A stretch of 64,000 nt of DNA, taken from positions 132,557 through 196,556 of the forward strand of contig JAQVVF010000002.1 of the NCBI GenBank assembly GCA_028699085.1, given 5' to 3'. Source of the DNA: Patescibacteria group bacterium (GTDB taxonomy: Bacteria > Patescibacteriota > JABMPQ01 > JAQVVF01). Position 1 is the first letter of the stretch. Each line of letters begins with the position of its first letter. Below, one piece after another: positions 1,066 through 35,142 of the stretch. The notes beneath the pieces are model-generated. The model was not told the origin of the DNA. It ran no database searches and saw only the letters and a program-made list of their open reading frames with translations. The translations under genes and the position numbers were made by a program.

Positions 1066-3483
1066 TTAAATCACAATATTTATCAATCTTCCTTTTACAA
1101 AAATTATCTTCTTTATCTTCTTGCCAGCAATAAATTTCATTATTTTTTCTCTTTTCTGAACTAATTCACTCGCTTTTTCTTCAGAAATATCATTATTCAC
1201 TTCCATAAAATCTCTGACTTTGCCATTAACTTGAATAATTAATTTAATTTTAGCTTCTTTGGTTTTATTTTCATCAAATTCTGGCCAAGTTACTTTAAAT
1301 ACACTCTCCTTATTTCCAAGCATCTCCCACATTTCTTCACAAAAATGAGGTGCTAAAGGTGACAAAATAATTATTAAAGTCTCTAAATCTTTTTTAGAAA
1401 TTTTTTCTTTTTGCTTGTCCAATAAATTCAAAAATTCCATCAACGAAGCAATAATCGTATTATAATCCAAGTTTTCAATATCATTCGTCGCCTTTTTAAT
1501 TAACTTATTTCTTTCAATTTCAAAATGTTTCTCATTGCCTAAAGAATTAAGTGTTTTCGAAACTAAAAAGAAAAGTCTGCCAAAGAAACGCTCAATTCCA
1601 ACCACTCCTTCATCTCGAAAATCGCCACCTTGCTTTAATGGTCCGATAAACATCAAATATGTCCTCAATACATCAGCGCCATATTTTTCAATATAATCAT
1701 CTGGATTTATCACGTTACCTTTTGACTTGGACATCTTTGCGCCATCTTTAATAATCAAACCATGCGCTCTAAATTTTTTGAAAGGCTCTTCAAAATCAAC
1801 CATTCCTAGATCATACAAAACCATCGTTACAAATCTAGTATAAAGCAAATGAAGCACTGCATGTTCATGTCCGCCAATATACATATCTACTGGCAACCAT
1901 TTTTTTGTGATTTCTTTATCAAAAGGCTGATCTTTTATATCAACGCTTGGATAACGTAAAAAATACCAAGATGAATCCAAAAAAGTATCTGACACGTCAG
2001 TTTCTCTTTTTGCATCGCCACCACATTTCGGACATTTTGTTTCCACAAATTTCTCATTTCGCGCAAGTGGCGATCGATCAGTCCCATCTGGCATGTAATC
2101 ATCAGTTTTTGGCAATAAAACAGGTAAATCTTTTTCAGGAACTGGCACGGTTCCACATTTTTCACAATAAGCAATTGGAATCGGCGGTCCCCAAAATCTC
2201 TGTCTAGAAATACACCAATCACGCAATTTATAATTAATCTTAAATTTTCCACCAACGAATTCAGTAATTGCTTTCTTAGCTTCAACGTTCTTCATGCCAT
2301 CAAATTTTCCAGAGTTAATCAAAATTCCATCACCCGTATAACATTTTTGTTCAGCAATTTTAACTTTTTTTTCAGGTTCTACAACCTCAACAATCTCCAA
2401 GTCATATTTTTGGGCAAATTCAAAGTCCCTTTCATCATGTGCAGGTACAGCCATAATTGCACCAGTTCCATATCCAGACAAAACATAATCAGCCACAAAA
2501 ATCGGAATTTCTTTCTTGTTTGCTCGATTCACTGCCTTAATTCCTTTCAATTCAACACCAGTTTTTTCATTTGTTCTTTCCTGATCAGTCTTTTCTTTTG
2601 CTTTCTTAATATATTCTTCAACTTCATTCCAGTTTTCAATTTTCTCTTTATTCTCTTCAATAAATTTATGCTCTGGAGATAAAACTAAATAAGTACAGCC
2701 AAATAATGTATCAGGTCTGGTCGTAAAAACAGTTAGATTTGTAATTTGAGATTTGGGATTTGATTGGTCGTTGGTCATTGGAACTTGAAAATTAATCTCA
2801 GCTCCTTCCGACTTTCCAATCCAATTCTTTTGCGCTACTTTTGTCTTTTCTGTCCAATCAATTTTATCAATATTCTTTAACAATTTTTCAGCATAATCAG
2901 TAATTTTGAAAAACCATTGGCTCATATCTTTTTTTACAACTTCTGTTTTACATCTTTCACAAAGACCTGCTTCAACTTGTTCATCAGACAAAACAGTCAT
3001 GCACGAAGGACACCAATTCACAGCTGCCTTTTTTTTGTAAGCCAATCCCTTTTTGTACATTTGCAAAAATAGCCATTGTGTCCATTTATAATAATCTGGA
3101 TCATAAGTTTCTAAGGTTTTTGACCAATCATAAGAATTACCAATCATATGCAATTGTTTGTAGAAATTATTTTGAGTCTTTTCTGCCATTTCTGCTGGAT
3201 GAATTTTATTCTTAATTGCAAAATTTTCTGAATGAATACCAAAACCATCCAATCCAATTGGTTCAAAAACATCATTACCTTTTAGTCTCTGATACCTTCC
3301 ATATATATCCGAACCAGTAAAAGCATACATATTGCCAACATGCAAACCTTCGGCAGATGGATATGGAAACATCATCAAATTATAAAAAGGCTTTGCAGAA
3401 TTTTTTACATCAACTTGATAAAGCTTTTCTTCTTCCCATTTTTTCTGCCATTTTGCTTCAATTTTCTTAAAATCATATTTCAT
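1066..3483 (-). CDS. leuS: leucyl-tRNA synthetase
   Basis: 805 aa; PYPSAEGLHVGNMYAF (HIGH region reads HVGN), KMSKSKGN, WCISRQRFWGPPIP; full-length alignment to bacterial LeuRS. Confidence 0.95.
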   Translation of the reverse strand: MKYDFKKIEAKWQKKWEEEKLYQVDVKNSAKPFYNLMMFPYPSAEGLHVGNMYAFTGSDIYGRYQRLKGNDVFEPIGLDGFGIHSENFAIKNKIHPAEMAEKTQNNFYKQLHMIGNSYDWSKTLETYDPDYYKWTQWLFLQMYKKGLAYKKKAAVNWCPSCMTVLSDEQVEAGLCERCKTEVVKKDMSQWFFKITDYAEKLLKNIDKIDWTEKTKVAQKNWIGKSEGAEINFQVPMTNDQSNPKSQITNLTVFTTRPDTLFGCTYLVLSPEHKFIEENKEKIENWNEVEEYIKKAKEKTDQERTNEKTGVELKGIKAVNRANKKEIPIFVADYVLSGYGTGAIMAVPAHDERDFEFAQKYDLEIVEVVEPEKKVKIAEQKCYTGDGILINSGKFDGMKNVEAKKAITEFVGGKFKINYKLRDWCISRQRFWGPPIPIAYCEKCGTVPVPEKDLPVLLPKTDDYMPDGTDRSPLARNEKFVETKCPKCGGDAKRETDVSDTFLDSSWYFLRYPSVDIKDQPFDKEITKKWLPVDMYIGGHEHAVLHLLYTRFVTMVLYDLGMVDFEEPFKKFRAHGLIIKDGAKMSKSKGNVINPDDYIEKYGADVLRTYLMFIGPLKQGGDFRDEGVVGIERFFGRLFFLVSKTLNSLGNEKHFEIERNKLIKKATNDIENLDYNTIIASLMEFLNLLDKQKEKISKKDLETLIIILSPLAPHFCEEMWEMLGNKESVFKVTWPEFDENKTKEAKIKLIIQVNGKVRDFMEVNNDISEEKASELVQKREKIMKFIAGKKIKKIIFVKGRLINIVI

Positions 3484-5286: not shown

Positions 5287-6801
5287 TTATATTCTTGGAA
5301 ATAAAGCTTGAGCCTTTTTTACCTGCAAATCTAAGTCAAAACGTTTCCATTTTTTCAATTTTGCATATTCTAATTTACTTTCTTCATCCCACATTGAGAA
5401 TTGTGTCAAAATATTTTCTGCTGTCTCTGGTAAAAATGGATAAATCATCCAAGCGATATGCCTGATTATTTCGATTAAGTTACACAATACTAAAGCGCAT
5501 TTTTCATCATCTTTTCCAAACAATTCCCATGGTTTTTCAACTGATATATATTCATTAGCAAATTTTACTAAACTGAAAGTAGTTTTCAAACTCTGATCAA
5601 TTTTATTTTCTTCCATAAACTTTTCATAATTCTTCCAAGCATTAGTAACTAACCTAACCACTTCTTTATTCTCTAACACCTTTCCTTTGCATTTCTTCAA
5701 ATCCAATTTCAAATACATTGCCGTAACTCTGCTCACCAAATTTCCTAAACCATTTGCTAAATTAGCATTAAATTGTTCATCAAATTTCTCTGCCTTTACA
5801 TCGCCATCTTGTCCAAAAGGAAATTGAGAGATAATTAAAAATCTTGCTGCATCAGATCCATATTTTTTTACTAAATCATTTGGATCAATCACATTGCCAA
5901 TCGTCTTGCTCATTTTCTGGCCATTCACTGTAAAATAACCATTTGCAAAAATATGCTTTGGAACTGCCAGCTTTGCTGCTAACAACATTGCCGGCCAATA
6001 AATTGCATGAAATTTTATAATATCCTTGCCCATCAAATGTAAATCTGTTGGCCAATATTTTTTAAAATTTGCATCATTAGAGCTTCCATATCCCAAAGCA
6101 GTAATATAATTTGATAATGCATCTACCCAAACATAAATTACTTGGCTTTCGTCCCAAGGCACTTTTATTCCCCATGCTACTTTTTCTCGAGAAACTGAAA
6201 AATTTTCTAATTCCTGCTTAAATAACCCCAATACTTCGGATCTGATATTCTCTGGCTCAATTTTTATCTTATCTTTTTCAATTAACTCCTGTACTTTCTT
6301 GGCATACTTATCAAGTTTGAAAAAATAATTTTTTTCCGAAATTTTGTCAGGACAAATTTTATGATCAGGACATTTACCATCAACTAATTCTTTTTCAGTC
6401 AAAAACTTTTCACAACCAGTACAATATAATCCTTCATACGATCCTTCATAAATTGCATCTGCTTCTCTCAATTTTTCAATAAATTTCTTAGCTCCAATTT
6501 CGTGTCTTTGATCCGTTGTTCTTATAAAATCATTATTGGAAATATTCAATGCATCCCAAAGTGAAGTATATAAAGCAGAAATTTCATCACAAAATTGTTT
6601 TGGAGTTTTGCCTACTTTTTCAGCAGATTTTGCTACCTTTGCCCCATGTTCATCTGTTCCTGTTAAAAAAAATACTTCATCACCAATAAAACGATGATAT
6701 CTCGCTAAAATATCAGCTGCAATCGTTGTATAAGCATGACCAAGATGCGGCTTATCATTTACGTAATAAATTGGTGTTGTTATATAAAATTTCTTTATCA
6801 T
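5287..6801 (-). CDS. metG: methionyl-tRNA synthetase
   Basis: TTPIYYVNDKPHLGHAYTT (HLGH), KMSKTIGNVIDP, zinc knuckle CTGCEKF...CPDHKICP. Confidence 0.95.
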   Translation of the reverse strand: MIKKFYITTPIYYVNDKPHLGHAYTTIAADILARYHRFIGDEVFFLTGTDEHGAKVAKSAEKVGKTPKQFCDEISALYTSLWDALNISNNDFIRTTDQRHEIGAKKFIEKLREADAIYEGSYEGLYCTGCEKFLTEKELVDGKCPDHKICPDKISEKNYFFKLDKYAKKVQELIEKDKIKIEPENIRSEVLGLFKQELENFSVSREKVAWGIKVPWDESQVIYVWVDALSNYITALGYGSSNDANFKKYWPTDLHLMGKDIIKFHAIYWPAMLLAAKLAVPKHIFANGYFTVNGQKMSKTIGNVIDPNDLVKKYGSDAARFLIISQFPFGQDGDVKAEKFDEQFNANLANGLGNLVSRVTAMYLKLDLKKCKGKVLENKEVVRLVTNAWKNYEKFMEENKIDQSLKTTFSLVKFANEYISVEKPWELFGKDDEKCALVLCNLIEIIRHIAWMIYPFLPETAENILTQFSMWDEESKLEYAKLKKWKRFDLDLQVKKAQALFPRI

Positions 6802-6806
6802 AAATA

Positions 6807-7460
6807 TTAATTTTTTATTATCACTACAAACTCTCCTTTTTCTTTAACTTTTTCCATAATTTCAGAAACTTTTCCTCGATATACTTCTTCAAAAATTTTT
6901 GTTAATTCTCGAGCTACAAATACCTCTTTATCACCAAGTTTTTCTAAAATATCACTCAAAGTTTTCTTAATTCTAAATGGCGACTCATAAAATACTATCA
7001 ATTTTTTCTCTTCCTGTAAAGATTTGAACATTGTTTCTCTGCCTTTTTTCTTTGGCAAAAAACCCAAAAAAACAAATTCGTTAGTATTAAATCCTGAAAT
7101 TGAAATAGCGGAGATACAAGCTGAAACTCCAGGAATAATAATTACCTTAATATTATTTTTATATGCTTCGTTAACTAATACGTCTCCAGGATCAGAAATG
7201 GTCGGCGTTCCTGCATCAGAAACTAAGGCAATATTCTTGCCATTTTTTAATTCACTAATCAGCAAATCAATTTTCTGTAATTTGCTATATTGATGATAAG
7301 AAAGCAAAGATTTATTAATTTCATATCTCGCCAACAATTTTGCCGTCACTCTAGTATCTTCGCAAGCAATCAAATCAACGCTCTTCAATATTTCTAAAGC
7401 GCGCAAAGTAATATCTTTCAAATTTCCAATTGGAGTTCCAACCACATACAATATGCCCAT
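6807..7460 (-). CDS. rsmI: 16S rRNA (cytidine1402-2'-O)-methyltransferase RsmI
   Basis: MGILYVVGTPIGNLKDITLRALEIL...ACEDTR; tetrapyrrole-methylase fold typical of RsmI; 5 nt from metG start (operon). Confidence 0.85.
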   Translation of the reverse strand: MGILYVVGTPIGNLKDITLRALEILKSVDLIACEDTRVTAKLLARYEINKSLLSYHQYSKLQKIDLLISELKNGKNIALVSDAGTPTISDPGDVLVNEAYKNNIKVIIIPGVSACISAISISGFNTNEFVFLGFLPKKKGRETMFKSLQEEKKLIVFYESPFRIKKTLSDILEKLGDKEVFVARELTKIFEEVYRGKVSEIMEKVKEKGEFVVIIKN

Positions 7461-7483
7461 ACAACAAATTTAAAATTTATTAA

Positions 7484-8638
7484 TTATTCTATGTCTTTCT
7501 TTTCTGGAGGAATTTCTGTTGTTCTTTTCGTAATTTCTGTTTTTTCAACTTTCACTCCAGCTAATTTCGGTTCACAAATTTCTGTTTTCAATTTATCTTC
7601 ATCTTTTTTATCTCTTTCATCAAACATATCCTTCAAGAAAACAGAAATCAAAGTCGCAGCCGGAACAGCAACTATTGCACCAAGAACACCAGCCAATTTC
7701 ACAGCAACTAAGATTACCAAAATAATCACCAGCGGATTCAATCCAACAACCTTTTGCATTATTTTCGGAACTAAAAGATGATTTTCTAGTTGCTGAACTA
7801 AAAAATATAAAATTACTACTAACAAAGCCAGTAAAGGCGATTGCGCTGACGCAATTAATACTGCTGGAATGGCAGAAATTACCGGACCAATATATGGCAC
7901 AACTTCAAGGATACCTGCAACTAACGCTAATACCAATGCATATTTTACACCCATTAAAGATAAGCCAATATATATTACAACCCCAACTATTAATCCTAAT
8001 AATAATTGTCCTCTTAACCACTTACCAACTTGAAGCTGCATTCTGCCAACTAAATCTTCAACATATGGACGATGACGAAATGGCACGATTGACCGAATAA
8101 ATTTTTTGAAACTTCCTTCCTCAACAATAAAATAAAATGACAAAACAAAGATCATAACAATAGATAGAATTCCCCCAAATAGACTAGAAAAAAAATCGTA
8201 TACACTTGATGCCGCCCCTCCAATTTTATCTTCCAATGAAGTCAATATTTCTTTTGCTTTTTCTAAACTTTGTTCTTGAGAATAACCAGTAAATTCTGAA
8301 ACTTTTTCAAATACAGTTTGAAAATAACCCGGCAAAACTTCAACCAATTGCCGTGTCTGTTCAATTAATGGCGGAACTAAAAGATAAACAACCAATGCAA
8401 TTAGACCAAGTAAAATCAAGAAAAGGAAAAGGGAGCTAATACCACGAGGAATTCTCTTTTTTTGTAACCAATCTACTACCGGATCTAATCCTGAAGCAAT
8501 CACTAACGCCACAAAAATAAGCAACAAGATATCCTTGACTGCAAACAAAAACATCAACAACAAAACAATCAAAACTGCTCTCAAAAAAGTAGCATAGGAA
8601 ACATCAAAAACTACTTTTCGATCTAAAAATTTTTGCAT
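7484..8638 (-). CDS. AI-2E family transporter (PerM/YdiK-like) with charged C-terminal tail
   Basis: Eight predicted TM segments, LENHLLVPKIMQK motif region, Lys/Glu-rich C-terminus. Confidence 0.8.
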   Translation of the reverse strand: MQKFLDRKVVFDVSYATFLRAVLIVLLLMFLFAVKDILLLIFVALVIASGLDPVVDWLQKKRIPRGISSLFLFLILLGLIALVVYLLVPPLIEQTRQLVEVLPGYFQTVFEKVSEFTGYSQEQSLEKAKEILTSLEDKIGGAASSVYDFFSSLFGGILSIVMIFVLSFYFIVEEGSFKKFIRSIVPFRHRPYVEDLVGRMQLQVGKWLRGQLLLGLIVGVVIYIGLSLMGVKYALVLALVAGILEVVPYIGPVISAIPAVLIASAQSPLLALLVVILYFLVQQLENHLLVPKIMQKVVGLNPLVIILVILVAVKLAGVLGAIVAVPAATLISVFLKDMFDERDKKDEDKLKTEICEPKLAGVKVEKTEITKRTTEIPPEKKDIE

Positions 8639-8657
8639 ATAAATTTATATTAAAAAA

Positions 8658-9923
8658 TTACAAACTTAACAATTTCAAATACTTCTCTTTATCTTCAATC
8701 GGCCCGATCATTGATAAATTTAATTTTTCATTTACAAAAATTTCTTGGGCATTTTTTTGGACATCATCTGCTGTCACAGCATCAATCTTTTTAAACTTTT
8801 CTTCGATTGTCTCAATCTTGTTTTTCAAAACTTCTTGCATTGAAAAAAACATTGCTTTCTCATCTGAAGATTCTAAGCCAATCAAAGTCTTGCCCTTAAT
8901 AAATTCTTTGGCTTTATTTAATTCTTTTTCAGAAACTTTTATATCTCTGATCTTCTTAAATTCATCAATACAAACTTTTATTGCCTCATCTGCATTCTCA
9001 TTTCTAACTCCAGCTTGAACAGCTAAGTAACCAGAATCCGTATATTCCTCTTGTTCTGCTCGAACATAATAAGCTAGTCCTCTTTTTTCTCGAATTTCTG
9101 AAAATAATCTTGAACTCATTCCACCGCCCAAAATAACTGATAATAATAACAACGGATAACGTTTAGGAGAAAACATATCAAAAGCTCTTACTCCCAAACA
9201 CAAATGAGTTTGATCTGTTTTTTTATTAAAAACCAAAATTTCTGCTTTATCTTGCTTCTCAACAACTTTTTCTTTGTCTTTTCTTCCCCCATCAACGAAT
9301 TCATCTAAATATTTATCTGCTAAATCAATGCTCTTTTGTTCATCCATATTTCCAGCCATACAAACAACTGCGTTTTTTATTAAATAATGATTTTTAAAAT
9401 AATTAACAAAATCATCACGCTTAACTCCTAAAATAGATTCTCGATGACCAATAACTAATTCTCCTGCCGGCGCTTTTCCATATAATAATTTTTCAAATAA
9501 TTCTGGAACATATCTTGTCGGCATATCTTGATACATATTCATTTCTTCAATAATAACACCTCTCTCTTTTTCTATTTCTGCGCTATCAAATTTCGAATGA
9601 AGCAAAATATCAGAAACAAAATCAACTCCCCGTTCGATGTGTTTTGAGGCTACTTTAGCGTAATATCCAGTATATTCTTTAGATGTAAAAGCATTGTATT
9701 CTCCACCAACCTCGTCTAAATATTCAGAAATTGCCATTGCATCTGCTCTTTTTGTAGTACCTTTAAAAAACATGTGCTCTAGAAAATGAGACAATCCAGC
9801 TATTTTGTCAGTTTCATATTTTGAACCAACACAAAAAAGCACCAAAAAAGTTGTTGTATCAATATCTTTTACTGGTACATGAATAAATCTTAATCCAGAT
9901 TTTAAACTAGTTTTTTTATACAT
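8658..9923 (-). CDS. M16-family (insulinase/pitrilysin-like) zinc peptidase
   Basis: Inverted zinc motif GLSHFLEHMFFKGT (HxxEH), downstream NAFTS...T.Y; 421 aa. Confidence 0.8.
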   Translation of the reverse strand: MYKKTSLKSGLRFIHVPVKDIDTTTFLVLFCVGSKYETDKIAGLSHFLEHMFFKGTTKRADAMAISEYLDEVGGEYNAFTSKEYTGYYAKVASKHIERGVDFVSDILLHSKFDSAEIEKERGVIIEEMNMYQDMPTRYVPELFEKLLYGKAPAGELVIGHRESILGVKRDDFVNYFKNHYLIKNAVVCMAGNMDEQKSIDLADKYLDEFVDGGRKDKEKVVEKQDKAEILVFNKKTDQTHLCLGVRAFDMFSPKRYPLLLLSVILGGGMSSRLFSEIREKRGLAYYVRAEQEEYTDSGYLAVQAGVRNENADEAIKVCIDEFKKIRDIKVSEKELNKAKEFIKGKTLIGLESSDEKAMFFSMQEVLKNKIETIEEKFKKIDAVTADDVQKNAQEIFVNEKLNLSMIGPIEDKEKYLKLLSL

Positions 9924-17217: not shown

Positions 17218-20200
17218 CTATTTCTTAACACCAATCCAACCTTCCTCTTTGCCTACCTTTGCTTCCTTGCCTAAATCAACTTCCTTTTTGCCTTCTTCTA
17301 ATTCAGTTGCTAAAGTCTCTTTCTTAATATAATCATCAAACTGGTGGCAAACTTTTTTACCCTTTTCACCCATTTCAAAACATACTTTAATCCTATCAGC
17401 AATCTGATAGTCAGCTTCCTTACGCATTGATTGAATTTGCCTTACAACTTCACGAGCCAGACCTTCTAATTCTAGCTCTTCAGTCAATTCAGTCTGCAAA
17501 GAAACTACAACATTACCATCGCCTTCAACTTCAAAGCCTTTTTCTTTAGAAATATATTTCTTCTTATTCTTTTTCTCTTTCACCTCAAAATCAATCTTCT
17601 CTACAAATTCAATATTTTTTACATTCAACTCATCTTTCAAGATATCTATCAAATCGTCCGAAATTTTTAATTTTTCATTTTGAATTTTTAATTTCGCCAA
17701 AGGTTGTCTTGCTTTCATTTGCGCTTTTGCCCTTGCAGCTAATCCTAATTTTGCAATTGTCCTTGTTAAATCCATTTCATTATTCAATTCTTCATCAATT
17801 AAATCAACGTCAGCCTTTGGATAATCACACAAGTGCACACTTCCGACTTCTGAAGGTCCGACGCTCTGACGCTCTAAATTCAAATAAATTTCCTCAGTCA
17901 CAAAAGGCACAATTGGCGCTAACAATTTTACAAAACTTATCAAAACAGTATATAGAGTTTGATAAGCCTGATTCTTGTCTTGATCATTCTCACTCTTCCA
18001 AAATCTTCTTCTTGATCTTCTTACATACCAATTAGCCAAATCATCCAAAAATTTCTCACATTTTTCCATTACACGCTGGGCATTAAATTTATCCATTTCT
18101 TTAGTGCATTCAACAATCAAAGCATTCAAAGCAGAGACAATCCACTGATCAAGTTTATTGTTCAGTTCTAATTTGCTATTTTTAGCTGGTTTAAAATTAT
18201 CAATGTTCGCATATAACACAAAGAAAGAATAAACATTCCACAACAAAATTAATTTACGCCTAATTGCTTCTGCAGGTCTATAACCAAATCTAAGATTATA
18301 AGCAGGATTCTGTACGCAATACATCCACCTCATTACATCAGCTCCCATTTTTTCAGCTGCTTCGTCAAACCAAATCGCATTACCAGAAGATTTATGCATT
18401 GGCTTACCTTTTTCATCTCTTACTTCTTCATAAGCTAGTACTTGCTTATATGGTATCTCATCTTCCAAGGTTACAGCCATGAATAATAATGAATAAAACC
18501 ATAATCTTACTTGAGCGCGCATTTCACATACAAATTCAGCTGGAAACCATTTTGCCCAATATTCTTTATCGCTAAAATATTTTAGCGTTGAGAAAGGCAC
18601 AATTCCAGCATCAAGCCAGCAATCTCCAACATCTTTAATTCTTGATACTTCTTTTTTACATTTTGGACAAACAATCGAAAGCTCATCAATCCAAGGACGA
18701 TGCAACTCTGGAACAATTTTTCCATTTTCTAAAATATTAATTTCATGAGCTTTTGCATTTTGCGCCATCACCTTCATGACATTTCTAATCTTACCTTTCT
18801 TTTCGATTACTTTTTCTAACCCAGCTAACACTCCATCATGAGTAACAATAACAACTGTTTGCCCATTATGTTTTTCTAATATTTCTCCATAAAAATCTTG
18901 GCATCTTAATAAAATATCTTTAGTGCTTTCACCAATTTCTCCAGCTTTTTTATCATTTACGCTATCGTAAACTTCTATTAACTCTTTTTTAAATAGTGAT
19001 ACTTTTTTATTAGCCCAATTACCAAAATCGTGCTCTCTTAAACGTTCATCTTCAACCAAATCTACACCGCACAATTTTGCTACCTTTTCTGCCGTTTTTT
19101 TACAACGAATATATGGAGAAGTATAAACAATATCAATGCCTCTCTCTTTCATCTGTTTCGCTAACAAAGTAGCTTCTTCTTCGCCTTTCCAATCCAAATC
19201 AGTACCAAGATCCTTACTATCAGTAATTCCCATCACATTGCCTTCGCTTCTACCATGTCTAGATAAAATTATATTAGTTGATTGCTGGTTTGATAATTCT
19301 AAAAGCTCTTTTCTTGATTGAATAGCTGTCACTTCACCACATTCACATTCATAAAAAGGCAATGGCAATCCCCAATAACGTTTACGAGAAATAACCCAAT
19401 CACCCATATTATCAAGCCAATCTTGCATTCTTTTGCCTACTGATTCAGGCAACCAACCAACCTTTTCTGCAGCTCTTTTCATCGGTTCTCTGATTTCCGA
19501 AACATCAATAAACCATTCGGAAACTGCTCTAAACACTAATTCCTCCTTGCATCTCCAACAAAATGGATAGCGATGTTTAATGTCAGCAATTTTCAAAAAA
19601 TTGCCTTTTTCTTTTAATGAAGAAAAAATTTCATTCTTAATTCCGTGAACATTTTTTTTGTTCAACCAATCAAAACCTTCTATGTAATTACCAAACTCAT
19701 CAATTGGCGCGATAATCTTCAAATCATTAGTTTTTGATAATTGATAATCTTCCTCACCACATCCAGGTGCAATATGTACAATGCCAGTACCTTCAGCATC
19801 AGAAACATCTTCCCAAGCAATAACTTTATGTTCAACGCCTGACTGAACAGGTAATTCATCAAATGGTCCTTCATAATGCAAACCTAATAAACTCTTGCCA
19901 TCAACTTCCTCCATAATTTCTGCTTCACCCAAAACTTTTGAAACCAAAGCTTTAGCCAAAATATACGTCTCACTGTCTTTCGTTGCTCTAACATATTTTA
20001 CCTTAGGATTTACAGCCAAGGCTACATTTGCTGGCAATGTCCAAGGAGTCGTTGTCCAAACCAAGAAATATTCATTAATTTCAGCTTCTTCACTTTTTCT
20101 TTTTAATTTAATATAAACTGCCTGATGAACTACTTCTTTCCAACCATCATCTGACAATTCATGCTGAGATAATGCTGTCCCACATCTTGTACACCAAGGC

Positions 20201-20736
20201 ATCACAGAATAACCTTTGTATAACCAGCCATTTCTTTTACATTTTTCTAAAAAAGTCCAGATTGCCTCAATATTATCATCAGTATATGTATAATAAGAAT
20301 TTCTCCAATCCATGAATTGACCCAATCTTTTTGATTGTTCAGTTTGAATTTCTGAATATTTCTCAATTCTTTCTTTGCATGCTTTAGAAAAATTATCCAA
20401 ACCAAATTTTTCAATTTCTTTTTTTGAATTAAAGCCTAAATCTTTTTCCACTTCAACTTCCACCCAAAGTCCCTGGCAATCAAAACCATTTTGCCATCTT
20501 TGATCAAATCCTTGCATCGCTTTATATCTCTGAAAAACATCTTTCAATGTTCTACCCCACGCATGGTGCACTCCCATTGGGTTATTAGCAGTAATTGGAC
20601 CATCAATAAAAGACCAAGGCTCTTTGCCATGATTTTTATTCTGCAATTTATAAAACATTCTATTCTCATTCCAAAAATCAAGAACATTATGCTCTAATTT
20701 CACGAAATCTTGTTTTGGGTCTACTTTTTTAAACAT
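17218..20736 (-). CDS. ileS: isoleucyl-tRNA synthetase (type 2) carrying an inserted histidine-phosphatase (PGAM-family) domain
   Basis: 1172 aa; IleRS hallmarks WVISRKRYWGLPLP, DCWLDAGIVPFS, tRNA-binding C-terminus. Between YECECGEVT and ELHRPWIDELSIVCPKCKK, aa ~472-688 encode LSRHGRSEGN...TSPYIRCKKTAE...VTHDGV (RHG catalytic motif of histidine phosphatases). HIGH region reads GVHHAW, KMSKS reads PMHKS. Confidence 0.9.
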   Translation of the reverse strand: MFKKVDPKQDFVKLEHNVLDFWNENRMFYKLQNKNHGKEPWSFIDGPITANNPMGVHHAWGRTLKDVFQRYKAMQGFDQRWQNGFDCQGLWVEVEVEKDLGFNSKKEIEKFGLDNFSKACKERIEKYSEIQTEQSKRLGQFMDWRNSYYTYTDDNIEAIWTFLEKCKRNGWLYKGYSVMPWCTRCGTALSQHELSDDGWKEVVHQAVYIKLKRKSEEAEINEYFLVWTTTPWTLPANVALAVNPKVKYVRATKDSETYILAKALVSKVLGEAEIMEEVDGKSLLGLHYEGPFDELPVQSGVEHKVIAWEDVSDAEGTGIVHIAPGCGEEDYQLSKTNDLKIIAPIDEFGNYIEGFDWLNKKNVHGIKNEIFSSLKEKGNFLKIADIKHRYPFCWRCKEELVFRAVSEWFIDVSEIREPMKRAAEKVGWLPESVGKRMQDWLDNMGDWVISRKRYWGLPLPFYECECGEVTAIQSRKELLELSNQQSTNIILSRHGRSEGNVMGITDSKDLGTDLDWKGEEEATLLAKQMKERGIDIVYTSPYIRCKKTAEKVAKLCGVDLVEDERLREHDFGNWANKKVSLFKKELIEVYDSVNDKKAGEIGESTKDILLRCQDFYGEILEKHNGQTVVIVTHDGVLAGLEKVIEKKGKIRNVMKVMAQNAKAHEINILENGKIVPELHRPWIDELSIVCPKCKKEVSRIKDVGDCWLDAGIVPFSTLKYFSDKEYWAKWFPAEFVCEMRAQVRLWFYSLLFMAVTLEDEIPYKQVLAYEEVRDEKGKPMHKSSGNAIWFDEAAEKMGADVMRWMYCVQNPAYNLRFGYRPAEAIRRKLILLWNVYSFFVLYANIDNFKPAKNSKLELNNKLDQWIVSALNALIVECTKEMDKFNAQRVMEKCEKFLDDLANWYVRRSRRRFWKSENDQDKNQAYQTLYTVLISFVKLLAPIVPFVTEEIYLNLERQSVGPSEVGSVHLCDYPKADVDLIDEELNNEMDLTRTIAKLGLAARAKAQMKARQPLAKLKIQNEKLKISDDLIDILKDELNVKNIEFVEKIDFEVKEKKNKKKYISKEKGFEVEGDGNVVVSLQTELTEELELEGLAREVVRQIQSMRKEADYQIADRIKVCFEMGEKGKKVCHQFDDYIKKETLATELEEGKKEVDLGKEAKVGKEEGWIGVKK

Positions 20737-20801
20737 ATTGACAAAAATTAATTAATATGATAAAATTTATATAGTTCTTTCAAGAGAAAAGGAGACAAGA
20801 A

Positions 20802-21056
20802 ATGAAAAAATCACTCAAAAAAATTTTTTGGATAGTAATAACAACATTTCTTTTGATAGCCTCTTTAACACATTTCTCAATTGTACTATATGCAATAATC
20901 ATGATTTTTTTACCTTCTACTAATATTCTTGCCATAGAGATTATAACAATCTTTTGCTTAATCAACGGTTTATTCTGTTTATACTTTTCCAAACTTTTTG
21001 CTTCTCATTTCCAGATCATTCCTCAAAAAAGAATAACGCACTTACTTTACCACTAA
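20802..21056 (+). CDS. hypothetical small membrane protein
   Basis: 84 aa, two hydrophobic helices; own sigma70-like promoter TTGACA-17-TAAAAT (20738-20766), SD AAAAGGAGA and a downstream terminator; lies between ileS and the PGAM gene on the opposite strand. Confidence 0.45.
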   Translation: MKKSLKKIFWIVITTFLLIASLTHFSIVLYAIIMIFLPSTNILAIEIITIFCLINGLFCLYFSKLFASHFQIIPQKRITHLLYH

Positions 21057-21066
21057 CGTGGTTTTT
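21043..21066 (+). terminator. rho-independent terminator (plus strand)
   Basis: Hairpin ACCACtaacGTGGT followed by TTTTTTT. Confidence 0.5.
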
Positions 21067-21642
21067 TTATTTAATTATAAAAGTCTGCACATCATTATAA
21101 TCAATGTCTTCCTGTCTAAAATACTCTTCGATACTGCAATCATTCAAAACCTTATAAATCGCTGCATTAATTCCACCATGACTAACAATCAAAATATTTT
21201 TATCAGAATATTCGTTCTTAATTTTTTCAACAAATTTCCTTACTCTTTCTACGATTTCTTTTCTTGACTCTCCAGTTCTTCCTAATTTAAAATTATATCT
21301 TTCTTCTCCAGGTTGCATTCGTCTATACCTACGATAATCTTCATCATTTTCTAGCAACTCTTTTTTTGTTCTATCATTCCATTCTCCATAATCATATTCC
21401 GAAACTAAAGGATCTATTACAATTTTTACATTAAACTTTTTATTCAAAATATCAGCAGTCTCACGCGCTCTCAAAACCGGCGAAGTAATAATTAAATCAA
21501 TTCTGTCTTTTATTTTCTTGGTCAATTCATTAACTTCCCTTCTTCCTTTCTCAGTTAACGGGAATTTATCTAGACTACAAGATTTAACATCTAAAGTATT
21601 CTTCTCGCTTTCTCCATGTCTAACAAAAATTAGTTTAATCAT
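21067..21642 (-). CDS. histidine phosphatase (phosphoglycerate-mutase family) protein
   Basis: MIKLIFVRHGESEKN (RHGE), TSPVLRARETA, EYDYGEWN, IVSHGG; start refined to ATG at 21642 (the track's 21654 start is a TTG); first gene downstream of the T-box leader. Confidence 0.8.
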   Translation of the reverse strand: MIKLIFVRHGESEKNTLDVKSCSLDKFPLTEKGRREVNELTKKIKDRIDLIITSPVLRARETADILNKKFNVKIVIDPLVSEYDYGEWNDRTKKELLENDEDYRRYRRMQPGEERYNFKLGRTGESRKEIVERVRKFVEKIKNEYSDKNILIVSHGGINAAIYKVLNDCSIEEYFRQEDIDYNDVQTFIIK

Positions 21643-21652
21643 AACTATTTCC

Positions 21653-21880
21653 AAAAATAAAAACCCTCATACAGAGGGCGATTAAATTCGCGGTACCACC
21701 TCAATTCAATATTAAATATTAAATATTCAATATTCTTATTTAAAAGCTATTACGGGCTTACCCGTACAGATCTAATTGCTAAAAACTTTAGCTTTCTTCT
21801 GTCAACTAATCTGGCGATAACCAGACTCAAACGTTTTTTAATTTACAGCTTTATTCTACCAGAAATACAAATTTTGTCAA
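21653..21880 (-). promoter_or_regulatory. T-box riboswitch leader (promoter, compact Stem I, Stem III, T-box antiterminator, terminator) upstream of PGAM gene / ileS
   Basis: Minus-sense 5'-TTGAGGTGGTACCGCGAATTTAATCGCCCTCTGTATGAGGGTTTTTATTTTT-3' (rc of 21653-21704). Antiterminator helices GAGG/CCTC and GCGA/TCGC with the 7-nt bulge TGGTACC. Terminator GCCCTC-tgtat-GAGGGT plus U-run. Promoter TTGACA (rc 21875-21880), 16-nt spacer, TAGAAT (rc 21853-21858). Hairpin TCTGG-uuAUCg-CCAGA (rc 21810-21825) carries AUC in its loop. Stem III ACGGGtaagCCCGT (21749-21766). Confidence 0.72.
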
Positions 21881-24168: not shown

Positions 24169-24684
24169 ATGCAAAAAACATTAGATATCGAAATTGAAAA
24201 AGCAATTCGTTTGATTTCAAAATATTTTCCAATATCAAACGAAAACACCAGAAAACCAGTTTTATTTCATGACATCAGAGTTGGAACATACTTATATGAA
24301 AAAAATTATTCTCGCGAAATTATCCTAGCTGGATTTTTACACGACACAATCGAATTCTCTAATATTGATGAACAAATGTTAACAAAAGAATTCGGAGAAA
24401 ATGTAACAAAAATTGTTTTAGCCAGCACTAAAAACAAAGCCTTAAAAAAAGACCAGATAAATGAAGAATTAATAAAACGTTGCGCCGAAAATGGCAAAGA
24501 TGCACTTATTATAAAAACAGCCGATACTATTGATAGTTTTAAATATTATTCAAAAATAAATAATACTGATCAACTTCAAAATCATTGCCTTGTAACTGCA
24601 AATTTGATTTTTAAGTATTTACCGAATAATATTGAAGACCCAATTTTTGACGAACTAAAAAAATGGCAAGAAAAAAATAAATAA
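24169..24684 (+). CDS. HD-domain protein, RelA/SpoT-type (p)ppGpp hydrolase-like (small alarmone hydrolase-like)
   Basis: FHDIRVGTYL...ILAGFLHDTIEFSNID...FGENVTKIVLASTKN matches the Rel/SpoT HD hydrolase pattern (H...HD...ED/E...); 171 aa; 6 nt after copA. Confidence 0.55.
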   Translation: MQKTLDIEIEKAIRLISKYFPISNENTRKPVLFHDIRVGTYLYEKNYSREIILAGFLHDTIEFSNIDEQMLTKEFGENVTKIVLASTKNKALKKDQINEELIKRCAENGKDALIIKTADTIDSFKYYSKINNTDQLQNHCLVTANLIFKYLPNNIEDPIFDELKKWQEKNK

Positions 24685-34595: not shown

Positions 34596-35142
34596 TTATT
34601 GATTATTGGTTATTTCTTTCCACGGGGGGTGTCAAGCTTCGCTAAAGAGCGTAGTTTAAAAAATTCATGTAGAGTCGCAAGATACTCTCTAAACTTCTTG
34701 CATATTATAAGTGCAAACTTATTATCAAAGGTTTCTGAAAAAGTAAAAGCTTTTGCTCAATCTTTTTCATTTCAACCTTCAACTGTAATCGCTTAATACC
34801 CGATTACCATCCATCCCGCTAGATTCGTGTGTGGGAATTGGGTGTCATTTTACGAACGTAGATTATCTCTCGCCTTAGAGATAATTGAAAATTATAATGG
34901 CTTTGAGTAATAAATATTTTTTTGGTTTAAAGTTTATTATTCGAGACAACCAAAACCAGATAAACTTGTAAAAGTTTTTTAAGCAAACTTTTTACACATG
35001 GGTGCAATTCCCATCACCTCCACCATCTGAACAAAATAATCAATAATCAATTTCCAAATAATATTCAATAATCAATAACCAAATTTCAAACTTTTTAATT
35101 ATTGATAATTGGTTATTTACTGATTATTGATTATTGGTTATT
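34596..35142 (+). repeat. exact 19-nt direct repeat TTATTGATTATTGGTTATT flanking ssrA (34596-34614 and 35124-35142) plus inverted partial copies (35035-35050, 35067-35084, 35097-35118)
   Basis: Read directly from the sequence; family of TTATTGATTATTGG-like units on both strands around the tmRNA gene. Confidence 0.55.
34625..35025 (+). ncRNA. ssrA: tmRNA (ssrA), one-piece
   Basis: 5' acceptor strand GGGGGTG pairs with 3' CACCTCC (G3:U70) followed by encoded ACCA; T-arm ATGGGTGCAATTCCCAT resembles GGTTCGAnTCC; lies directly downstream of smpB. Candidate tag frame GCT(34749) TTT GCT CAA TCT TTT TCA TTT CAA CCT TCA ACT GTA ATC GCT TAA (34794-34796) gives (A)FAQSFSFQPSTVIA, preceded by an A-rich stretch as in E. 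coli. Confidence 0.8.

Follow-up and report, generated by a model that had tools for sequence, protein, structure and literature searches.

Aminoacyl-tRNA synthetases pick up extra domains, and isoleucyl-tRNA synthetase (IleRS) is the target of mupirocin, to which it has repeatedly evolved resistance. To our knowledge, no bacterial synthetase has been found to carry a catalytically intact phosphatase nested within its catalytic domain. The closest described enzymes are the type-2 IleRS (IleRS2) in which positions 1 and 3 of the HIGH signature are naturally swapped to give G/A-X-H-H, a change that keeps catalytic efficiency and raises the inhibition constant for mupirocin up to 1000-fold, resulting in hyper-resistance (Brkic et al. 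2023, PMC10485003). Here we describe the ileS gene of a Patescibacteria group bacterium, located on a 64,000-nucleotide (nt) stretch of contig JAQVVF010000002.1 that was analysed as a whole and is called the window below. The encoded protein is of the same type and fold as the solved enzymes of that study (8c8u-8c9d) and shares with them the GVHH signature and DUF5915, whereas the published IleRS2 lacks a nested phosphatase and the clade of the window protein carries x-MHKS for KMSKS, which PMC10485003 does not mention. Judged from its sequence and predicted structure, the fusion represents a form of IleRS2 that is widespread but has not been described, and its nested histidine phosphatase looks active. 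Full-text searches of the literature library used returned no paper on both IleRS and histidine phosphatases, nor any on fusions of a synthetase to a phosphatase, in agreement with a first-pass annotation of this DNA, whose author knew of no described fusion of the kind. The gene and the relevant parts of its product are:

17218-20736, minus strand: ileS, encoding a type-2 IleRS of 1172 amino acids (aa) with a nested phosphatase (open reading frame (ORF), TIGR00392, Pfam)
18727-19272, minus strand: nested histidine phosphatase (branch 1), aa 489-670 (PF00300)
19336-19347, minus strand: zinc knuckle, first half (C464-E-C466-G), immediately N-terminal to the insertion site
18658-18669, minus strand: zinc knuckle, second half (C690-P-K-C693), following ELHRPWID on the C-terminal side of the insert
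20563-20574, minus strand: HIGH position, G55-V-H-H58 (G-x-H-H), from motif reading
18388-18402, minus strand: KMSKS position, P779-M-H-K-S783, from motif reading

The assignment as IleRS was supported by several features. The 1172-aa ORF scored 756.2 bits against TIGR00392, the ileS equivalog in NCBIfam (curated cut-off 621.4 bits), in a match of two stretches split by the insert. In Pfam, tRNA-synt_1 (aa 18-488) is followed by His_Phos_1 (489-670), a second stretch of tRNA-synt_1 (707-812), Anticodon_1 and DUF5915. An AlphaFold2 (AF2) model of the full protein based on an 84-sequence alignment reached a mean predicted local distance difference test score (pLDDT) of 92.5 and a predicted template modelling score (pTM) of 0.88, with the insert forming a confident alpha/beta domain. 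The best solved match to this model was Priestia megaterium IleRS2 (8c9d/8c8v; target-normalised template modelling (TM) score 0.85, 29% identity), and the C-terminal region, with Anticodon_1, DUF5915 and the same TM score to 8c8v, is that of a type-2 enzyme. The CP1 editing domain is complete in the translation, with the Thr-rich peptide WTTTPWTLP and the motif GTGIVHIAPGCGEEDY, which corresponds to GTGxVHxAPxxGxxD and is invariant in alignment A1. Among the knuckle cysteines, C464 is invariant and C466 nearly so in alignments A1 and A2, a homologous CxxC aligns in other fused IleRS, and C690 and C693 are conserved in both alignments. The order ileS-recO-TPM-tgt is kept among relatives, and no second ileS was found within the 64-kb window. 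The protein is most likely the working IleRS of a bacterium of the Patescibacteria, or candidate phyla radiation (CPR).

The public record carries this protein under a less specific name. An exact match, MDD3887506.1, comes from a Patescibacteria metagenome-assembled genome (MAG) and is titled 'class I tRNA ligase family protein [Patescibacteria group bacterium]' at NCBI. A member of the same 90%-identity cluster (P0378; P and L numbers are our handles for proteins and loci) is likewise a 'class I tRNA ligase family protein', and P0064 is a 'hypothetical protein', although all three pass the ileS equivalog. Given such names, automated metabolic reconstructions may report ileS as missing from these genomes.

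The nested domain interrupts the zinc knuckle. In insert-less relatives 24 residues separate CGE from ELHRPWID, compared to 208 in the window protein (alignment A1), giving a net insertion of about 185 aa between the two halves of the knuckle (C464/C466 and C690/C693); the opened hairpin is one that we take, from domain names in the literature, to be the CP3 connective peptide. PF00300 (His_Phos_1) was recovered in the insert with an E-value of 1.1e-32 and 113.7 bits (cut-off 21.7), over profile positions 1-183 of 194. The first-pass annotation had proposed a complete histidine-phosphatase fold in the zinc-knuckle loop of a type-2 IleRS, at 18673-19323 (aa 472-688). These coordinates bracket the Pfam domain and every motif quoted is present (R493-H494-G495...N500, R544 in TSPYIRCKKTAE, E568 and H633 in VTHDG), and the proposal is confirmed by Pfam, by the AF2 models and by the structural matches. 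When modelled alone, the insert adopted a histidine-phosphatase fold (pLDDT 88, pTM 0.87), which Foldseek placed closest to Hydrogenobacter PspA (4ij5/4ij6; TM 0.86-0.87, root-mean-square deviation 2.1-2.6 A), followed by the riboflavin-pathway HFP 9mmh, mycobacterial GpgP, PhoE and CobC. Sequence searches of the PDB with the insert gave the same list. All catalytic-core residues of branch 1 (R493, H494, N500, R544, E568 and H633) lie in the insert, and with these residues kept the phosphatase is apparently active. Because the N- and C-terminal strands of the fold lie side by side, it would plug into the loop without disturbing its host.

To which enzyme of the superfamily the insert belongs is a separate matter. 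Its scores fell short of the cut-offs of the specific equivalogs: 61.9 versus 225 bits for dPGM_arch, 78.4 versus 162.9 for CobC (TIGR03162), 78.8 versus 350 for PspA and 49.9 versus 261 for GpmB. In an NCBIfam scan of the whole protein the SixA model was also far below its cut-off, with a match of only 2.8e-05. The description of the insert as 'PGAM-like' (phosphoglycerate mutase-like) in the first-pass annotation is therefore correct for membership in the branch-1 superfamily and fails at the level of the dPGM and GpmB equivalogs. By these profile scores, the insert is a member of the superfamily and not any named enzyme.

An assembly chimera at 18673-19323 had been considered possible and can be ruled out: a phosphatase nested in the same way recurs in assemblies made independently, from Logan (SRR27710297, SRR27710321 and SRR27710318), ENA (ERZ24794679), JGI (3300037810) and NCBI (MDD3887506.1), and neither GC content nor skew shows a break across the insert.

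The fusion is not a singular event, as it had first seemed, but characterises a large family of more than 100 divergent clusters. With aa 455-705, the insert and short flanks, as query, HMMER was run exhaustively over 1.84 billion representatives of 50%-identity clusters and gave 9984 matches at E <= 0.001. The set that was classified consisted of 149 of the best 150 representative matches with cluster members and earlier matches, in total 159 proteins. Counted by 50%-identity cluster, about 100 of the best 150 encode a fused IleRS. In 109 of these, IleRS sequence flanks the domain on one or both sides; no host protein other than IleRS was found among the classified matches, and all 8 full-length fused proteins scanned against NCBIfam passed the ileS equivalog. 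The link between phosphatase family and IleRS suspected in the first-pass annotation thus holds at the level of the family, in 109/159 proteins and in 75/80 metagenome loci (see below). Within this sample the phosphatase family appears essentially specific to IleRS, across many uncultured Patescibacteria, and the fusion is present in well over a hundred uncultured lineages. One fused member, KKP39778.1, belongs to a Peregrinibacteria MAG whose sample name contains GW2011, indicating that the architecture has been in GenBank un-noted for years.

The number and position of the domains vary. Most fused members carry the domain at the same site as the window protein (site A). A second site (site B), a loop that connects the catalytic core to the anticodon-binding domain, is occupied together with site A in P0133 and P0138 and alone in P0216 and P0064, the latter from a Peregrinibacteria MAG. 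Two complete tandem copies are found in P0123 and P0131, whereas the partial protein P0121 has one complete copy, one truncated copy and a short extra fragment, and the partial protein P0142 has three complete and one truncated copy. Among the 116 embedded copies, the first Arg and the nucleophile His were each conserved in 114/114, the second Arg in 115/116, and the Glu/Asp and the second His each in 116/116; none of the complete tandem copies has lost any of them.

Several other observations were made on these proteins and their loci. First, a GC-rich palindromic repeat (gcctgcctgtcggcagacagg...) lies in the intergenic region upstream of ileS in L001 (7770-7850), and the ileS product of that locus, P0002, contains the stretch PCLSAGRSCLSCLTGRQAAGRQ after ...ARIDKWEFKNSKLQIT, exactly at site B. 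By eye this looks like an in-frame copy of the repeat, which would mean that the loop tolerates insertions. Second, at the P0129 locus (L087) an RNase H gene (5607-6014, 135 aa) overlaps the start of the fused ileS (6001-9495) by 14 nt. Third, some 16 clusters among the nearer relatives of the insert are free-standing proteins, 405-450 aa long, made up of two tandem histidine phosphatase domains, both catalytically intact (P0135, P0139, P0170, P0183, P0197, P0204, P0205, P0208, P0214, P0220, P0221, P0224, P0237, P0240, P0263 and P0269). Fourth, two loci that seemed to hold other big inserts, L066 and L074, were rejected, their long matches consisting of an ordinary 1117-aa ileS and an adjoining ORF. 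Lastly, an insert-only query of a 5.8-billion-protein collection retrieved nothing, not even the 92% relative, a result that we put down to the word index rather than to absence, and a scan of GTDB genomes with the full protein retrieved no relative closer than ~63% and none with the insert.

The unusual signature motifs of the window protein are not connected with the insert. The GVHH at aa 55-58 is the described G/AxHH variant of the class I signature, and PMHKS differs from KMSKS by replacement of the first Lys and the first Ser, keeping M-x-K-S; M780, H781, K782 and S783 are invariant in alignment A1. Among 116 nearest relatives without an insert, G-x-H-H occurs in 114 and x-MHKS in 98, in many phyla including Chloroflexota, Armatimonadota, Eisenbacteria and Woesearchaeota. 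Conversely, insert-bearing IleRS from other sub-clades have HxGH in 27 cases and GxHH in 23, with a canonical KMSKS in nearly all. Since the variants are shared by insert-less relatives, and HxGH and KMSKS occur in insert-bearing proteins, the GVHH/x-MHKS combination reads as a clade trait independent of the insert and gives no sign of a crippled enzyme. The first-pass annotation had read both motifs correctly; a tie to the insert is not supported, and the doubt that it raised about catalytic competence is answered for G-x-H-H, enzymes with this motif being active in published work (PMC10485003). For x-MHKS, which is not discussed there, we found no biochemical data, and its frequency among insert-less relatives is compatible with an ordinary ileS.

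We next compared the insert with its host by computing the ratio of nonsynonymous to synonymous substitution rates (dN/dS) for the window versus three relatives. This ratio was 0.17-0.20 in the insert, compared to 0.035-0.085 in the IleRS core. In the comparison with the 92% relative (L002), protein identity was 96.5% in the core and 72.9% in the insert. dN was 0.018 in the core and 0.186 in the insert. The insert is thus under purifying selection, yet evolves about 10 times faster than its host at the protein level. Its dS between the window and L002 was also raised (1.09, about twice the 0.50-0.55 of the flanking core), which hints at recombination or exchange of the module. Consistent with exchange, the core of P0176 belongs to the G-V-H-H/x-MHKS clade of the window, whereas its domain is 54-55% identical to those of P0254 and P0185, and the N-terminus of P0185 has the GIHH signature of another sub-clade, suggesting that the module moved between ileS genes and was not passed on by vertical descent only. 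In a rough neighbour-joining (NJ) tree of the domains, most embedded domains group together, apart from the free-standing and two-domain proteins, and the site-B domains of P0064 and P0216 fall among site-A domains; the tree is star-like at ~30% identity and does not separate one origin from several.

A second, free-standing phosphatase is encoded next to ileS in the window, with a small ORF between the two genes:

21067-21642, minus strand: free-standing histidine phosphatase, 191 aa (PF00300 E-value 1.3e-38, 133 bits)
20802-21056, plus strand: small hydrophobic ORF of 84 aa, opposite in strand to the two genes that flank it, the free phosphatase and ileS

The free-standing protein, to which P0276 ('histidine phosphatase family protein [Patescibacteria group bacterium]') is an exact match, was reported in the first-pass annotation as a paralog upstream of ileS, for which a local duplication was suggested. 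The paralog is real, being 32% identical to the resident insert over 173 aa, but local duplication is not supported, since the same protein is 44-53% identical to domains in other IleRS. Identities to individual embedded domains were 48% (P0181), 47% (P0136) and 44% (P0153), and those to free-standing relatives were 81%, 67% and 44-55%. A profile of the free-standing family found 80 loci in JGI metagenome contigs, of which 75 were within an IleRS-like ORF of ~1140-1365 aa, with best identities of 49-53%. At two of the five free-standing loci (L103 and L120), a class-I synthetase ORF with an IleRS-like N-terminus starts 400-700 nt downstream. By these identities the free-standing phosphatase of the window is a detached member of the IleRS-embedded family. 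Such a detached copy adjoins a fused ileS in the window, in L089 (phosphatase 81% identical) and at the P0281 locus (55% identical), where His_Phos, a 229-aa ORF and ileS lie 6 nt apart on one strand. None of 80 insert-less IleRS loci of other phyla had such a phosphatase gene within 6 kb.

The 84-aa ORF has a near-consensus promoter (20738-20766), AAGGAG 8 nt before its ATG and a terminator (21049-21062), has no Pfam match and is probably not part of the phosphatase-ileS system. A 193-aa thioredoxin-like ORF at the same position in L089 was considered as its counterpart and found to be unrelated.

Other detached homologs are encoded away from ileS. These have no T-boxes, and the tRNA genes adjacent to them are those for Gln and Arg. 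In L093 a tRNA-Ile gene lies 7 kb away from the homolog, P0299 (44% identical), which directly follows an APH-family kinase gene and stands beside a HIT-family gene (6197-8519); an HD protein, Ham1 and a major facilitator superfamily (MFS) transporter are encoded nearby, a setting suggestive of the metabolism of nucleotides or antibiotics. In L091 the homolog P0292 lies ~5 kb away from the genes of flavokinase, riboflavin synthase and lumazine synthase (255-1652, 7001-7612), and the occurrence of riboflavin genes here and of the riboflavin-pathway 9mmh among the nearest folds may be a coincidence.

Expression of the free phosphatase appears to be placed under a T-box, for which we identified the following elements:

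21671-21840, minus strand: T-box leader with a very short Stem I (RF00230, 56.2 bits, E-value 3.7e-11)
21663-21679, minus strand: T-box terminator hairpin GCCCUC-UGUAU-GAGGGU followed by a U run (terminator scan)
21853-21880, minus strand: promoter-like site TTGACA-16-TAGAAT with TG (11/12 matches), preceding the T-box leader

The leader contains the conserved T-box sequence AAUUGAGGUGGUACCGCG, the hairpin AGUCUGGU-UAUC-GCCAGAUU in its fold (z = -3.8) and a Stem I whose apical loop holds AUC, an Ile codon that was assigned by eye as the specifier. With a T-box sequence, a Stem I specifier and a terminator/antiterminator alternative all present, the T-box that the first-pass annotation had placed before the free-standing phosphatase is genuine, although its score is below the Rfam gathering score of 93 because 7 nt replace 75 Stem-I consensus positions. 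The same leader is found directly upstream of fused ileS in L002-L004. In the 92%-identical relative it lies 27 nt upstream of ileS with no free phosphatase between, showing that the leader is of the ileS type; in L089 the free phosphatase follows it, and in the window lineage both the detached phosphatase and the opposite-strand ORF stand between leader and ileS. T-box control as a general property of fused ileS was rejected, being specific to a few lineages. Together with the conserved ileS-recO synteny, the Ile T-box suggests that the ileS of the window is the main copy.

Based on these results, we consider it an even chance that the fusion is a two-enzyme polypeptide in which an IleRS is coupled to a small-molecule phosphomonoesterase that serves isoleucine charging. 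The IleRS half would charge tRNA-Ile normally, G-V-H-H being an active, mupirocin-resisting variant, and the phosphatase half would be competent, with His494 as nucleophile assisted by R493, R544, E568 and H633. The capped architecture of ~190 aa would be that of small-molecule phosphomonoesterases such as PspA, PhoE, CobC and GpgP rather than of a mutase, and a small-molecule substrate is favoured because these enzymes and the riboflavin-pathway HFP are the nearest in sequence and fold. The phosphatase would hydrolyse a small, probably nucleotide-like phosphomonoester, whose removal would keep tRNA-Ile charging going. In the version that we favour, this would be a target-embedded detoxification of a phosphorylated antimetabolite directed at IleRS; in a second version, a nucleotide product or by-product would be cleared at the enzyme. 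IleRS is under documented inhibitor pressure, as GxHH arose repeatedly, and this hyper-resistance motif is present in the window protein and in 23/50 fused IleRS with readable N-termini. Such pressure, the fast evolution of the domain, its tandem amplification and T-box induction at charging failure make detoxification attractive. In the window lineage, the T-box would induce the detached copy exactly as uncharged tRNA-Ile accumulates. A bolder proposal, that the embedded phosphatase is a defence or repair module in the target, which destroys a phosphorylated inhibitor or strips phosphate from IleRS or the tRNA-Ile 3' end and has a T-box-induced second copy in some lineages, is tentative, and we would not expect it to be the answer.

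Several points weigh against coupling to isoleucine charging. We are aware of no phosphorylated natural inhibitor of IleRS. The more remote detached homologs (44-52% identity) are encoded away from ileS and without a T-box; in the window itself, a gene on the opposite strand with its own promoter and terminator separates the detached copy from ileS; and the core motif of the T-box lies upstream of only 3/61 other fused ileS genes. The use of two sites and the variable copy number suggest that a precise geometry to the synthetic site is not required, so that tethering or co-expression fits as well as coupling. Finally, the near-restriction to IleRS, with detached copies beside ileS, would also be expected if the domain had been inserted once, long ago, and had since been inherited vertically, duplicated within the gene and split off locally.

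This last point leads to the main rival, which is less probable than functional coupling and still a serious possibility: a housekeeping phosphatase inserted once into a permissive ileS loop, in an early CPR lineage, and was kept for an unrelated function of its own. The tandem, site-B and detached copies would have arisen by intragenic duplication and local fission, and T-box control would be an accident of the landing place. The phylogenetic pattern is explained equally well in this way. The rough NJ tree, with embedded domains mostly clustering together and site-B domains among those of site A, is compatible with it, and P0133 and P0138, with both sites occupied, provide an intermediate between occupation of A alone and of B alone. 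The two loops are permissive, as illustrated by what looks like an in-frame palindromic repeat at site B of P0002; the closest folds are ordinary metabolic phosphatases, with the L091 homolog ~5 kb from riboflavin genes; and the homologs away from ileS and the rarity of the T-box motif before fused ileS would be expected. Against such a passenger stands the lack of any other host protein in >100 divergent clusters. The window genome keeps both an embedded and a detached copy beside ileS, the detached copy is behind an Ile leader in two lineages, and a relative with a 55%-identical free phosphatase has a tight His_Phos-X-ileS operon. The domain of P0176, 54-55% identical to domains of IleRS from another sub-clade, further suggests that the module moved.

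It is improbable that the substrate is a macromolecule, with the phosphatase providing built-in repair or immunity by removing phosphate from IleRS itself or from the tRNA 3' end. Kinase toxins of the HipA/HipT type phosphorylate GltX or TrpS, and toxSAS enzymes add a 3'-phosphate or pyrophosphate to tRNA. T-box induction upon charging failure would suit a defence against such attacks, as would the fast evolution and expanded copy number of the domain. A phosphatase of this type is already known in fusion with a nucleic-acid enzyme, the RNase H/acid phosphatase of NF005567, the phosphatase-family model that P0130 matches best; in L087 the fused ileS overlaps at its start with an RNase H gene, and the window encodes a small SpoT-like HD_4 hydrolase (24169-24684). 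The nearest sequences and folds, however, are capped small-molecule phosphatases and not the cap-less SixA type (2.8e-05), no kinase or toxSAS gene was seen beside the loci examined, and toxins of this sort are not known to single out IleRS or tRNA-Ile. A T-box would, moreover, read a 3'-blocked tRNA as charged.

A non-catalytic role, in which the domain is a structural or tRNA-binding appendage and its phosphatase chemistry irrelevant, is very unlikely. The loop is a site of frequent lineage-specific insertions in class Ia synthetases and the surface of the domain evolves fast, but the catalytic quartet is kept almost without exception in 116 copies, all complete tandem copies included, and the same residues are kept in the detached copies. 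Hardly credible is the scenario of the first-pass annotation, a recent local duplication into an ileS with degenerate HIGH and KMSKS that made an altered enzyme or paralog, or else an assembly chimera, which would account for two phosphatase sequences close together and for the unusual motifs, because the neighbour shares 32% identity with the insert and resembles the inserts of other IleRS more, both motif variants run through the clade in insert-less enzymes of many phyla that look like ordinary ileS, with GxHH enzymes active, and the architecture recurs in many independent assemblies with the ileS-recO-TPM-tgt synteny conserved.

Other genes of the window are of more distant relevance. Two further synthetases, LeuRS (1066-3483, minus strand) and MetRS (5287-6801, minus strand), are both without a phosphatase insert. 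The HD_4 protein (24169-24684, plus strand; 171 aa; PF13328, E-value 9.7e-09), which has a SpoT/RelA-type hydrolase fold and is possibly a small alarmone hydrolase, is encoded two genes from the T-box, after a heavy-metal P-type ATPase. A full-length tmRNA was detected at 34625-35025 (plus strand) by Rfam (104.7 bits), while ARAGORN found no tRNA or tmRNA gene in the 64-kb window.

The fusion is more general, and more interesting, than the first-pass annotation supposed. It implies a tie between some phosphate-ester chemistry and the charging of isoleucine, or at any rate the ileS gene, and an enzyme embedded in a drug target could point to new natural inhibitors or toxins of IleRS. If the defence or repair proposal were true, it would represent a previously unrecognised way to protect an aminoacyl-tRNA synthetase and would imply a class of phosphorylated inhibitors, or of phosphorylating toxins, acting against IleRS in CPR habitats that has gone unrecorded.

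Beyond IleRS2, four known systems invite comparison. The leader resembles those of actinobacterial ileS genes, for which a very short Stem I is typical (Sherwood 2015, reviewed in PMC7583486): both have a short Stem I with an apical AUC specifier, a Stem II region and the conserved T-box sequence. The leader of the window differs in its terminator-like hairpin and U run, so that it looks transcriptional rather than translational, and in preceding the phosphatase gene rather than ileS. A precedent for the accretion of a catalytic domain by IleRS is the NCBI exception model NF040702, 'isoleucine--tRNA ligase, N-acetyltransferase domain-containing', on which we found no paper. The window protein scored 303 bits against it (cut-off 1999), and the GNAT domain, at positions 284-464 of the hidden Markov model (HMM), would map to about aa 266-278 of the window protein, hence to another site, as judged from HMM coordinates. 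The insert itself shares fold, size and catalytic residues with PspA (4ij5), PhoE/YhfR (1ebb, 1h2e), CobC (6nru), GpgP (4pz9) and HFP (9mmh), at TM 0.79-0.87 and 19-26% identity. Unlike the nested insert these are free-standing metabolic enzymes, and as their equivalog cut-offs were not reached, no substrate can be transferred from them. The fourth is the actinobacterial bifunctional RNase H/acid phosphatase (NF005567; Rv2228c type), in which, as here, a CobC/PhoE-like phosphatase is fused to an enzyme acting on nucleic acid. Matches to its phosphatase half reached 70-102 bits, below the cut-off of 326, and the two architectures differ in their partner enzyme and in the manner of joining, NF005567 proteins being end-to-end fusions whereas the window protein carries its phosphatase as a nested insertion.

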